Virus record (IMG/VR): IMGVR_UViG_3300025534_000006
Coordinates: 1 to 64,000 of that record
Strand: one strand, 5' to 3'
Origin: a virus
Taxonomy: Duplodnaviria > Caudoviricetes
Length of the DNA: 64,000 nt
The notes beneath the pieces were generated by a model. It worked only from the letters and a program-made list of their open reading frames with translations, was not told where the DNA came from and ran no database searches. Position numbers and translations under genes: made by a program. This document shows positions 4,580 to 38,939 of the stretch, piece by piece (within the stretch, counting starts at the first letter, position 1; the number at the start of each line of letters is the position of its first letter).

Positions 4580-4586
4580 TATTTAG
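4580..4586 (-). promoter_or_regulatory. Late promoter TAAATA
   Basis: CTAAATA upstream of tailspike. Confidence 0.6.
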
Positions 4587-26520: not shown

Positions 26521-27045
26521 ATGGACTTCCGGCCCGAGAAGGTCATTATCGGCCGCGTCGCAGCACGGGAGTACAGTGTCTATGACCCGGTGCTTGATCT
26601 CTGGGTCGTGGTTGGCGCTGATGGGGGCGTGCGCTTCGAGAGCCCGGAGCCAGTCAGCCTAAGCGAGTTCTTCCCAGCACCCGACGCCGGTACCGAGGAC
26701 TTCGCGGTGAGGCTGCTTGCGTGGCTGCGCGAAAATGCCGGGACCGGCGAGGTGATTGAGGGTCGATGGGCCGATTGTGCGGATACTCAGGCGGCTCGTG
26801 CCGCCGTGTATTCCTTCGACGGCACCGCGCCGCTGGCGGTCGAAACGGGGCTGGAGTTCAATTGGGATTTCCGGACGCGCGACGTGATCTTCGAGGTCCG
26901 TGGCGACCCGGAGTTGGTGGACGAGTTCCTCGCCGAATACCGCGTGCAGTTCCCGCGCGAGACCTATGACACCACTTTCGCGGAGCACCCCGCACCCGAG
27001 GGTGCGAAGTGCGTGCGCGTGGTCCGCAGGAAGCTGTTCGATTAG
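26521..27045 (+). CDS. Hypothetical protein
   Basis: GAGG RBS; GC3-rich ORF. Confidence 0.65.
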   Translation: MDFRPEKVIIGRVAAREYSVYDPVLDLWVVVGADGGVRFESPEPVSLSEFFPAPDAGTEDFAVRLLAWLRENAGTGEVIEGRWADCADTQAARAAVYSFDGTAPLAVETGLEFNWDFRTRDVIFEVRGDPELVDEFLAEYRVQFPRETYDTTFAEHPAPEGAKCVRVVRRKLFD

Positions 27046-27806
27046 CCCGATGCCCCGAGATGCCCGAGCAGTTCCGGAGTGCCGACGGCGTTGAGCACCT
27101 GCTTGGCGCAAGGGTTCTGGAACAGGCTGAACAGCGAGTTGGTCATCGCGAAGTTCAGCATCTCGGTCATCGCGGTAGCCAATGCCTGAACCTCGTTTCC
27201 GATCATGGTGGTGATGTTGGCGGCAACCATTTCAATCTGCGCCACCGCACCCATGATCGCTCCCAAGGCGGCTTGCATGTCCGTCAGGACGCCGGACACC
27301 ACGTTCTGGATCGTGCTGGTCATCGCGTTGATCTGGCTGGTGATCTGGTCGATGAACCCCTGTGCGCCGCCCATCAGTGACCCGAAAAAGTTGCCCATAC
27401 CCGCACAGGGGTCGGTCCCCGGCGCGCCAGTATTGCCTTGCGAGGGCATGTTGCAGCCCGCGCCCACGAGGCCGACTTGGGCAGCTAGGTGGGACACGGC
27501 CAGACTGAGATTGCTGACAAGGTTCTGAATCTGCGTCTGCAAATGCGAGATCAGCGCCGACACCGCCCCCATGGCGACGGCCTCGATACGCATGATGAGG
27601 GACTGCGCGTCCAGCATCAGGGAGGTCAGGATCGCCTCGGGAATCTCTTGGATGCGCTCGATGGAGCCCAAAAGCTGATCCTTGAGGGCCATTGCGCCCG
27701 TGATGGCGGTGGTGGCGAATGCGCCGCCGGACTGCAACAGGCCCATGACGCCGCAGGTGCCCGGATTCGTCGGAAAAGCGATGATGCCTGAAATGTTGAT
27801 GCTCAT
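27042..27806 (-). CDS. Putative baseplate-associated helical protein
   Basis: Directly downstream of PAAR gene; Ala/Gly-rich helices with spaced Cys. Confidence 0.5.
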   Translation of the reverse strand: MSINISGIIAFPTNPGTCGVMGLLQSGGAFATTAITGAMALKDQLLGSIERIQEIPEAILTSLMLDAQSLIMRIEAVAMGAVSALISHLQTQIQNLVSNLSLAVSHLAAQVGLVGAGCNMPSQGNTGAPGTDPCAGMGNFFGSLMGGAQGFIDQITSQINAMTSTIQNVVSGVLTDMQAALGAIMGAVAQIEMVAANITTMIGNEVQALATAMTEMLNFAMTNSLFSLFQNPCAKQVLNAVGTPELLGHLGASG

Positions 27807-27812
27807 GATGGT

Positions 27813-28682
27813 TCAGTCGATGAATGTGTTGGGTGAGCCGCCGATCACGATGTGACCGCACGCCGCGATGGCGCCCATGGGAGCGGCCTGCTTGTCGCCA
27901 TGGCTGACGGTCGGACTGCACAGGGCCACGATGGTGGTAAGCCCGTGCTGCTTGCAGAATACCAGATCGCCCAGCCGCGCCACCGGCAGGTCGTTCACGC
28001 TGGTGGTCTCCGACCCGGAGATGATCTGTCCGCCTCCCGTCAGGGGATCGCCAAGGCGGGCGAGGGGCTTGCCGGAGGCGTTGGGGGAGGGGGCCGGGTC
28101 GAACTCCCCGGTGGTGGGCGCGTCGGCCGATTCCGTCACCGCATTGGATGGCCGGACGGTGCGGCCGTTGCTGTAGGTGGTGACAACCTCGTTGGCCGAT
28201 GCGGTGGAGGGTGGCTCCGGCGCCGTCGGGTCCGGGTTCTCCGGGGGTGGCTCGGCCTCGACCGGTTCCGCGTCATAAGCCGCATAGGTGACCCGGTCGC
28301 GGTCCGACTGGCTCCACGAGTAGTTGATGGTCTCGTTCTGCCTGCCCACGCCGCCGAGTTGCCCCCAGAAGGCGTGCGGGTATTTGCCTGCCGCGAGGCT
28401 GCCCGGCACCACGACGACGACATGGCCGTGCGCATTGGGCCGCGCCTGCTCCGACCCCTTGAGCCCGGCAATGACGAATTTGCCCGCCTGTGCCTGTGCG
28501 GCAGCCGTGGCGCCATCTGGCAGCACGGTCCAGCCATTGCCACTCCTGATGGTATCGACGATCTGGTTCGCCAAGCCCCGCAGCGGGATCGACAGAGCCG
28601 CTGCGACCGCCCGGCAGAAGCCGGAGCAGTCGGAGCGGTGCTCGGGCCAGTTGGCGGCACAAGCGGCGACGATATCAGCCAT
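27813..28682 (-). CDS. Tse1/Tae1-like peptidoglycan amidase fused to C-terminal PAAR
   Basis: DCSGFCRAVAAAL...VIAGLKG...HGHVVVV...KYP...DRDRVTY; Pro-rich linker; PLARLGD, PVARLGD..C..H, QAAPMG...CGH. Confidence 0.8.
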   Translation of the reverse strand: MADIVAACAANWPEHRSDCSGFCRAVAAALSIPLRGLANQIVDTIRSGNGWTVLPDGATAAAQAQAGKFVIAGLKGSEQARPNAHGHVVVVVPGSLAAGKYPHAFWGQLGGVGRQNETINYSWSQSDRDRVTYAAYDAEPVEAEPPPENPDPTAPEPPSTASANEVVTTYSNGRTVRPSNAVTESADAPTTGEFDPAPSPNASGKPLARLGDPLTGGGQIISGSETTSVNDLPVARLGDLVFCKQHGLTTIVALCSPTVSHGDKQAAPMGAIAACGHIVIGGSPNTFID

Positions 28683-28706
28683 TGGAACCCGGTATGGTCG
28701 CGCGCA

Positions 28707-29054
28707 TCAGCCCCGCAGCAGGCTACTGGCCTGCTGCGCGTTGGGAATCTCGATACCGGTGGTGGCCCGGATGTAGTTCGAGGCCACGTCCTGTCGGGTC
28801 TTGATGGGCTTGTTCAGCATCGCCTCGACGCGAAAGCTGACCGGGCCTTCCTCCCCGGCCGAGGCCATGAACGGCATGAAGCCGATCTGCGCCTGCTGCG
28901 GCCCGACCATCTGCACCCCGATCACGACGGGACGGGTCACCGCCACCACATCGGCCGAGATGGCGTGCAACTTGCCGACGATCTCCTCGCCGCTGACCAG
29001 TTTGAAGGTGCAGACATCGCCCAGAGCGGGCGCATTGTTCTTCTCAATAAGCAT
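28707..29054 (-). CDS. Sm-like fold hypothetical protein
   Basis: GDVCTFKLVSGEEIVGKL...RPVV...PFM. Confidence 0.6.
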   Translation of the reverse strand: MLIEKNNAPALGDVCTFKLVSGEEIVGKLHAISADVVAVTRPVVIGVQMVGPQQAQIGFMPFMASAGEEGPVSFRVEAMLNKPIKTRQDVASNYIRATTGIEIPNAQQASSLLRG

Positions 29055-29199
29055 TCTGAAATGGCTCCTAGAATGACGCAATTATAGCGCATCCGGCCCC
29101 TCGAAGCCAATTTCATTCGAAGGGCAACGTGGACGCTATAAAATCGGTTGACGGAACCGAATTTTGTGCGATCCTCCCTCTCGAAAGGAGGATCGCACA

Positions 29200-31810: not shown

Positions 31811-32830
31811 TCAGAAGTCGTCCACGTCCAGCGCCACGTCGCCGCCGATGCCAACCGCGTATTCGGCCGGGGTCCGCTCGAAGAAGTTCGCGAGCGATTG
31901 CACGTCCTGCTTGAGCATGAAGTCGAACGGGCACTTCGCATTGTATACCGGCTCGATGCCGAGGCGGCGCATGTGGTTGTCGGCGGTGTAGCAGAGGTAC
32001 TCGCGCATGTCCTCCTTGGTCAGGCCAACCACACCGAGGGACAGCGTGTCCTCGGCAAACTGCATCTCGCAGTCGATGGCCTCGGCGAGCATCTGCTTCA
32101 CCCGCTCGTCCATCTGGTCATCCCACAGTTCCGGCTCCTCGCGGCGCACCGCATCGATCACGCTGAACGCGAAGCGCATGTGCCACGATTCGTCGCGGAA
32201 CACCCAGTTGGTGCCACTGCCGAGGCCATGCAGCAGGCCGCGATCCCGCAGGTAGTAGACGTAGGCAAAGGCCGCGAAGAAGAACAGCCCCTCGACCGCC
32301 GCCGCGAAGGTGATCAGGTTCATCAGGAAGGTGCGCTTCTTCTCGACGGTATCGAGCACGTCGATGTCGTTCATCGCATCCATCCACTTGAAGCAGAAAT
32401 CCGCCTTCTTCTTGATGCTCGGGATGTTGTTGATGGCATCGAACATCGCCTTCCGCTCGTCGGGATCGGGGATGTAGTTGTCGAGCAGGGTGAGGTAGAA
32501 TTGGACGTGCAACGCCTCCTCGAAAATCTGGCGGGAATAGTAGAGGCGCGCCTCAGGGCTGTTGACGTGCTTGTAGAGGGTGAGCGCGGCGTTGTTACCG
32601 ACGATGGAGTCGCCGGTCGCGAAGAAAGCGACGATGCGCGACACGACGTGCTTCTCGGCTTCGGTCAGCTTCTCGCGCAGATCGACGAGGTCGGTGGCGA
32701 AGGAGATTTCCTGAACGGACCAGTTATTGGCCTGCGCATTCACGAAGGCATCGAAGAAGGCCGGGTACTTCATCGGGCGAAGCGTGAGGTCGAAGCCCGG
32801 CGTGAGCAGGGTATGCTTGGTAGACGACAT
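31811..32830 (-). CDS. nrdB: Ribonucleotide reductase class Ia beta subunit
   Basis: FFATGDSIV, EEALHVQFY, VEGLFFF, WVFRDESWH di-iron motifs. Confidence 0.96.
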   Translation of the reverse strand: MSSTKHTLLTPGFDLTLRPMKYPAFFDAFVNAQANNWSVQEISFATDLVDLREKLTEAEKHVVSRIVAFFATGDSIVGNNAALTLYKHVNSPEARLYYSRQIFEEALHVQFYLTLLDNYIPDPDERKAMFDAINNIPSIKKKADFCFKWMDAMNDIDVLDTVEKKRTFLMNLITFAAAVEGLFFFAAFAYVYYLRDRGLLHGLGSGTNWVFRDESWHMRFAFSVIDAVRREEPELWDDQMDERVKQMLAEAIDCEMQFAEDTLSLGVVGLTKEDMREYLCYTADNHMRRLGIEPVYNAKCPFDFMLKQDVQSLANFFERTPAEYAVGIGGDVALDVDDF

Positions 32831-36397: not shown

Positions 36398-36404
36398 TAT
36401 TTAG
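36398..36404 (-). promoter_or_regulatory. Late promoter TAAATA
   Basis: CTAAATA upstream of fibre 36371. Confidence 0.6.
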
Positions 36405-38932: not shown

Positions 38933-38939
38933 TATTTAG
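38933..38939 (-). promoter_or_regulatory. Late promoter TAAATA
   Basis: CTAAATA upstream of 38906. Confidence 0.6.

Follow-up and report, generated by a model that had tools for sequence, protein, structure and literature searches.

In this study, we examined a window of 64,000 nucleotides of phage DNA, the whole stretch analysed here, and confirmed that the gene at positions 27813-28682 encodes a Tae1-family amidase fused N-terminally to a genuine PAAR domain. We propose that its product is probably the tail spike-tip protein of the phage, orthologous to T4 gp5.4, in which a Tae1-type amidase held on a linker of ~63 residues would cut the cell wall at entry. The open reading frame, on the minus strand, starts with an ATG that has 8 open codons upstream, and specifies 289 aa plus stop. 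The gene and its parts are laid out as follows.

27813..28682, minus strand: whole fusion gene, Tae1-like amidase plus linker plus PAAR, 289 aa
28263..28682, minus strand: amidase domain (aa 1-140), assigned to the Tse1/Tae1 family by PDB phmmer, AF2, Foldseek and alignments
28626-28628 and 28422-28424, minus strand: codons of the predicted catalytic residues Cys19 and His87, respectively, both checked
28074..28262, minus strand: linker (aa 141-203), predicted to be disordered from composition and pLDDT
27816..28073, minus strand: PAAR cone (aa 204-289), from Pfam, AF2, Foldseek and alignment

The N-terminal part (aa 14-137) matches eight distinct PDB sequences of Pseudomonas aeruginosa Tse1 in phmmer, with E-values ranging from 1e-20 (best 1.2e-20) to 4e-19, and displays the motifs DCSGF (with Cys19), GHVVVVV (with His87), KYP and, at 127-130, DRDR. 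Cys19 and His87 align with Cys30 and His91 of Tse1; they are nearly invariant in alignments of 30 and 46 sequences, being retained in at least 90% of family members, and occur in all three proteins of the fusion clade considered below (the window protein, P0002 and P0044; P, G and L numbers are our own handles). Cys8 of the amidase domain is likewise conserved family-wide. An AF2 model of aa 1-140, built on the 46-sequence alignment, reached a pLDDT of ~97, and when it was compared with the PDB by Foldseek all 17 matches at E<=1e-3 were to Tse1/Tae1 (TM 0.77-0.84, rmsd 1.0-1.5 Å, 38-39% identity). The best CHAP match in Foldseek had an E-value of 0.07, those of other cysteine peptidases were at least 0.12, and Pfam NlpC_P60 matched the domain only at E 0.088. 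Thus, sequence and modelled fold assign the domain to the Tse1/Tae1 family specifically, rather than to generic phage NlpC/P60 or CHAP enzymes. The original prediction, made from the DNA letters and their translation, had recognized this family from the same motifs, which are indeed present, and had held that a grouping with generic phage NlpC/P60 would speak against it; phmmer and Foldseek agree on Tse1/Tae1, the dyad aligns, and every significant fold belongs to that family.

The C-terminal PAAR foreseen in the same prediction is equally real. Pfam PAAR_motif (PF05488) matches aa 210-280 at E 6e-17, with 62.1 bits against a cut-off of 27 and profile positions 1-69 of 70 covered. Modelled separately with 18 phage PAARs, the domain gave an AF2 pLDDT of 91.7, and Foldseek returned the solved structures 4jiv, 4jiw, 9f4b, 4ku0, 6p1z and 9vyi at TM 0.67-0.80, the fold matches being VCA0105, c1882, the tip of Klebsiella phage KP1, T4 gp5.4, phiKZ gp163.1 and the P1 tip. 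The domain has two copies of ARLGD, and APMGA. Across 19 phage PAARs His246 and Cys275 do not vary; together with Cys243, Cys255, His261 and His277, which are also present, they may include the metal ligands expected near the apex of a PAAR. NCBIfam T6SS_PAAR (NF033420) scores the fusion at 30.9 bits, below its cut-off of 124. Between the two domains, the 63 residues of the linker include 13 Pro, 9 Ala, 8 Thr, 7 Glu and 7 Ser, and their AF2 pLDDT of 33-73 predicts disorder; comparable Pro-rich linkers are found in P0002 and P0044. The cargo is N-terminal (amidase aa 1-140, PAAR aa 204-289), the reversed order that had been proposed, and, again as proposed, neither a hydrophobic N-terminal segment nor a signal peptide was found in the fusion protein. 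GC3 lies at 0.82-0.89 in amidase, linker and PAAR alike, matching the adjoining phage genes. The GKPLARLGD stretch of the fusion aligns with the MGKPAARLGD N-terminus of bare phage PAARs, which indicates that amidase and linker were grafted exactly onto the first codon of the ancestral PAAR.

A chimera of assembly is excluded, since the identical 289-aa protein (P0001) is recorded on 3 contigs, the longest of 484,642 bp, since a protein of 300 aa and 44% identity to the fusion (P0002) has the identical domain architecture, and since both junctions are bridged by identical pieces of 151 nt (28224-28374, amidase-linker; 27952-28102, linker-PAAR), which are short contigs from an independent 2023 sludge run. 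P0044 is an apparently truncated third member of the fusion clade. DNA identical to window positions 27042-29110 was also observed in bioreactor metagenomes (2017) and in a sludge metagenome (2023), runs X1-X4, and the contigs of a second bioreactor study carry identical pieces as well; given these sources, the habitat of the phage looks like engineered or wastewater systems, not soil. No RNA dataset is listed among the sequencing runs that carry the DNA.

The window belongs to an IMG/VR virus record of 85,780 bp with a CheckV completeness of 17%, whose genes include those for tail fibres, RNR subunits, thymidylate synthase, DnaB and primase; this contig is a fragment of a huge phage of roughly half a megabase. 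The fusion lies in the middle of a compact operon of three genes (Sm-like, fusion, DUF7217), with the following surroundings, compared here with Sinorhizobium phage Phosso and other relatives introduced below.

31811..32830, minus strand: NrdB (RNR small subunit), the syntenic anchor upstream, 66-67% identical to those of G036 and G037
29081..29110, minus strand: sigma-70-like promoter match TTGGCT-18-TATAAT, preceding the three-gene operon
28707..29054, minus strand: Sm-like protein, 115 aa, phrog_527, upstream in the operon and beside PAAR in related huge phages
27042..27806, minus strand: DUF7217 protein, 254 aa, phrog_2114, 6 nt downstream of the fusion and beside PAAR in Phosso, G036 and L142

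An Atlas look-up placed the Sm-like and DUF7217 proteins in mostly viral families, and PDB searches with both gave no meaningful match and none to Tsi1, the best (E 0.004) being to L-lactate oxidase. Both genes, Sm-like (phrog_527) and DUF7217, keep their place beside PAAR in huge phages whose GC content spans 34-62% (e.g. L120:1151-2662, L005:5131-6438). Both proteins may be tip-associated factors, for example chaperones or ejected proteins. On the 85.8-kb fragment no spike gene (Phage_base_V, Gp5_C, Phage_GPD) was found and no T6SS genes were seen, and among the window genes scanned there was no other obvious endolysin. We also searched the 85.8-kb contig with an HMM of the signal-peptide partner that accompanies the amidase at 18 bacterial loci (see below), and no immunity-like gene matched it; with the neighbour searches in the PDB equally empty, the earlier statement that no Tsi1-like immunity gene is evident holds. 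As to transcription, the window has 16 sites of CTAAATA where 0.67 would be expected, most of them immediately ahead of structural genes (e.g. 36398-36404, 38933-38939 and 4580-4586), and the motif is likely the late promoter of the phage. It precedes the tail-fibre genes and is absent before the PAAR operon; in the relatives, a TATAAT-type box precedes the module in G036 and G037, and an ATAAATA box in Phosso, G040 and G044.

Through the DUF7217 protein we reached the cultured phage Phosso (469,473 bp), in which a bare PAAR of 94 aa (XYS97638.1) has as neighbours an Sm-like gene (29% identity) and one that is DUF7217-like. The whole Phosso genome holds one PAAR ORF, one spike gene, situated 133 kb from the PAAR module inside the baseplate cluster, and no Tae1-like domain. 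With a spike relative as bait, 26 IMG/VR contigs were retrieved, including the complete genomes, with terminal repeats, of G036 (523,836 bp) and G044 (435,856 bp); each encodes a single PAAR, of 85-92 aa, at this position and lacks a Tae1-like domain. G036 reproduces the gene order of the window (NrdB, Sm-like, PAAR of 85 aa, DUF7217-like), with 67% identity in NrdB and 44% in PAAR. A single PAAR ORF was seen in each of Phosso, G036, G037, G040 and G044, and part of the module surrounds 13 of the 27 IMG/VR PAAR loci, with NrdB at 12 and the Sm-like gene at 9. Judged from gene order and sequence, the fusion is the syntenic orthologue of the single PAAR of these relatives. None of the related PAARs, 27 in number, is extended at the N-terminus; 23 consist of the bare domain (85-117 aa), and C-terminal additions are seen in four, a short tail in two and a domain of 230 aa in two. 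The last two (L138:2938-3957 and L140:2995-3957; 3300017694_000020 and 3300032625_000282) lie in the same NrdB/Sm-like slot, and their C-terminal domain gives weak matches to Hydrolase_2 (SleB-type, E 5e-4) and to a PHROG endolysin (E 3e-6); they appear to be independently armed tips, with a putative wall hydrolase at the other end. Searches of INPHARED with tblastn and megablast, using the fusion and 20 kb of its context, gave no match, and the Sm-like protein likewise none; scanned one by one against IMG/VR, neither the fusion nor DUF7217 nor P0002 found anything, nor did P0002 in a metagenome scan, and word-based searches for close PAAR-only or PAAR-extended relatives recovered the query alone.

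The reading of the fusion as a spike tip draws on the position that it shares with the one bare PAAR of each complete relative, and is supported by the presence of the same amidase family on the C-terminus of phage spikes (see below), as well as by the armed syntenic PAARs of L138 and L140. The fusion is one instance of a more general practice of these phages, not described before, to hang wall hydrolases on the spike complex. In the course of events that we envisage, the PAAR cone would sit on the blunt end of the trimeric beta-helix of the spike, and each virion would thus bear one amidase at its tip; sheath contraction would push spike and tip across the outer membrane into the periplasm, where the tethered amidase would cleave the peptide stems of the wall and make a local hole for the tail tube, a role equivalent to that of the gp5 lysozyme in T4. 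Tae1 cleaves the gamma-D-Glu-mDAP bond, and by analogy we infer amidase activity with this specificity for the fusion. The spike tip of T4 is gp5.4, and the spike-tip protein of P2 has been recovered from the periplasm post-infection (PMC12407873); a tip-tethered Tae1-type amidase would thus reach its substrate. Being made in the cytoplasm, with no export signal, the protein would not oblige the producing cell to have an immunity protein, which fits the absence of an immunity-like gene. Counting against the spike tip are the 17% of the genome that is visible, with the spike gene and any second PAAR outside view, and the operon box, which is of the TATAAT type and not the CTAAATA of the tail fibres, although G036 and G037 share the TATAAT type. 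Penetration might also be impeded by a folded domain of 15 kDa at the point that pierces. Of the original proposal, a spike tip armed as an entry lysin, the tip has gained support from synteny, while the entry-lysin role is still argued from likeness to other tails.

Other uses of the protein can be weighed on the same evidence. A PAAR-plus-toxin layout is typical of T6SS, PHROG 281 labels PAAR as 'moron', and Hcp or VgrG occurs in ~60% of the genomes with the closest amidases, as might be expected if this were a phage-borne type VI effector (a moron) that loads on the VgrG of the host and is shot at adjacent bacteria in the course of infection or lysogeny. Yet the gene occupies the position of the only PAAR of complete relatives, of which it is the syntenic orthologue, its NF033420 score falls below the equivalog cut-off, the neighbouring genes are in largely viral families, and no immunity gene is present, though a firing population would need one against sister cells; we find such an effector very unlikely. 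It is also rather improbable that the fusion is an alternative tip, with a bare PAAR encoded elsewhere and only some virions armed, for instance for thicker-walled hosts or to cause lysis from without. Room for a second gene exists in the 83% of the genome that is unseen, and several PAARs are common in T6SS organisms (PMC8651086), but Phosso, G036, G037, G040 and G044 have one PAAR ORF each, and the fusion sits in that slot.

A TATAAT-type rather than late-type promoter match before the operon, together with the lack of another obvious endolysin among the scanned window genes, would suit an amidase that works mainly in lysis at the end of infection, or as a soluble lysin, its link to PAAR being incidental. 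Nevertheless, the protein has no signal or membrane anchor, whereas the membrane-anchored relatives have N-terminal TM helices; the identical fusion layout is kept in P0002 at 44% identity; and the amidase is also fused to spikes, all of which leaves this role with little probability. We would give hardly any weight to the idea that the domain is a non-catalytic anchor that binds the wall and orients the tip: nothing specific favours it, the one feature to mention being that the partner of the Tse1 Cys7-Cys148 disulfide is missing in the fusion, and the retention of Cys19 and His87 throughout the fusion clade and in at least 90% of the family argues against it. The spike tip armed with an active amidase is the reading that we prefer.

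Where such an amidase might have come from is approached through its relatives. A HMMER scan of 1.8 billion cluster representatives gave 449 of them at E<=1e-3, and among the 166 retrieved only P0001 and P0002 bear a PAAR. Elsewhere in the family the domain stands as a free protein of ~140-170 aa, follows two to four N-terminal TM helices, is fused to PG_binding_1, transglycosylase, pesticin-lysozyme or an eCIS-core domain, or sits on phage spikes. Among the spikes, P0034 (1072 aa) consists of an OB domain, a beta-helix, SLT and then the C-terminal amidase; over its N-terminal 500 aa it shares 36% identity with the Phosso spike (E 2e-89), its PHROG match, at 1e-50, is 'baseplate hub subunit and tail lysozyme', and Phosso-like spikes ending in the amidase are also encoded by G031 (L126) and G032 (L125) of IMG/VR. 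With ~1024-1072 aa, the spikes of P0034, L125 and L126 carry two wall hydrolases each (SLT and Tae1-like), in an evolved-VgrG-like manner. P0072 (367 aa) joins an eCIS_core domain (PF13699, E 7e-24) to a Tae1-like amidase, which suggests that the amidase module is also cargo of extracellular contractile injection systems. A further class, of ~280-335 aa with two to four N-terminal TM helices and a Tae1-like amidase, comprises P0011, P0018, P0020, P0021 and ~30 further proteins; TM-anchored amidases are found in bacterial genomes too (Verrucomicrobia, Azospirillum, Methylobacterium; L034, L037, L054, L061).

The closest bacterial relatives (55-64% identity) are orphan stand-alone amidases of ~140-150 aa, hosted by soil Alphaproteobacteria (Dongiaceae, Acetobacteraceae, Stellaceae, Azospirillum) and by Acidobacteria. 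At 18 of 80 bacterial loci the gene 3' of the amidase encodes a conserved partner with a signal peptide, which resembles an immunity protein. The closest free amidases are also flanked by small genes (L016:6895-7281, L019:6545-6934, L018:6442-6957) whose products begin like signal peptides or lipoproteins but differ from this 18-member family; they too may be immunity proteins, of another kind. Of 30 genomes with the closest amidases, 18 have Hcp and 19 have VgrG, several have neither, and at no bacterial amidase gene was Hcp or VgrG found within reach. The tse1 gene of P. aeruginosa is an orphan locus too, so this non-adjacency neither supports nor excludes T6SS use. As a FastTree of 234 rows was largely unresolved, a 53-row IQ-TREE was used, in which P0002 and P0044 join the window protein in one clade (SH-aLRT 94), inside a group (support 97) dominated by alphaproteobacterial free amidases, with two spike-borne domains placed apart; a single clade of all phage-fused copies is not rejected by the AU test (p 0.49). 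The IQ-TREE has no inferred root and the reading of origin rests on outgroup rooting; on the outgroup-rooted tree, a bacterial origin of the amidase is the more economical reading, and a type VI origin is plausible. The capture from T6SS that was originally proposed stays a conjecture: the nearest relatives are orphans never adjacent to Hcp or VgrG, both of which several of their genomes lack, and the domain family is found as well on phage spikes, an eCIS-core protein and membrane-anchored proteins.

To our knowledge, textbook and survey accounts have phage PAAR tips bare and effector loading a type VI invention. No report of a phage PAAR-hydrolase fusion was found in a full-text search of the literature. 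The PAARs of jumbo phages have been described as 'standalone ... unfused to any effector domain' (Iyer et al. 2021, PMC7824862), and PAAR toxins as almost always C-terminal, with amidases (Tae4) only in neighbouring genes (Zhang et al. 2021, PMC8651086). The fusion contradicts this published view of cargo-free giant-phage PAARs: giant phages also load enzymes on tip and spike, and do so with an amidase family that bacteria fire at each other. It thus offers a concrete, testable case of the traffic of weapon modules among phage tails, eCIS and T6SS, a natural N-terminal PAAR cargo useful for the engineering of spike payloads, and a way in which T6SS immunity proteins might be tied to phage resistance. 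One may go further and regard the spike C-terminus and the PAAR tip as interchangeable sites for hydrolase cargo in huge phages, with one Tae1-like module moving between both, an idea that we hold to be doubtful. If true, it would give a phage counterpart or forerunner of the evolved VgrG and specialised PAAR system of T6SS, and periplasmic immunity proteins of the Tai1 type in the host could block the entry amidase and so act as phage resistance; a parallel exists in T4, where Spackle blocks the gp5 lysozyme.

Known systems share some features with the fusion and differ in others. Tse1/Tae1 (PA1844; PDB 4EOB, 4FGE, 7TVH) has the same fold and Cys-His dyad, no signal peptide and a periplasmic target; yet it is a free protein of 154 aa, carried inside Hcp, with a Cys7-Cys148 disulfide and an adjacent immunity gene, tsi1, whereas the fusion is phage-encoded and tethered to PAAR, without the C-terminal Cys and without an immunity gene. 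The bare tips T4 gp5.4 (4KU0) and phiKZ gp163.1 (6P1Z) share the PAAR cone (TM 0.71-0.80), and the PAARs of Phosso and G036 occupy the same genomic slot at 35-44% identity; all of these, like that of G044, differ in having 85-97 aa and no cargo, the fusion having 203 extra N-terminal residues that include an enzyme. It resembles the jumbo-phage PAARs of Iyer et al. 2021 (PMC7824862) in being the PAAR of a myovirus-type giant phage, and is an exception to their survey. The T4 gp5 lysozyme and the hub CHAP of phage 812 (9EUM) are likewise wall hydrolases in a puncturing device, delivered to the periplasm at entry, but they reside in a trimeric spike or hub, in three copies, whereas the enzyme of the fusion would be present in one copy on a monomeric tip and belongs, by sequence and model, to the Tae1 family. 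Finally, PAAR effectors and evolved VgrGs of T6SS (V. cholerae VgrG-3) also bear an enzyme covalently on the spike complex, and spikes of the P0034 type mirror the evolved VgrGs; the PAAR effectors of T6SS, however, have cargo that is almost always C-terminal (PMC8651086), immunity genes and T6SS neighbours, whereas the fusion carries its cargo N-terminally and in a phage context.
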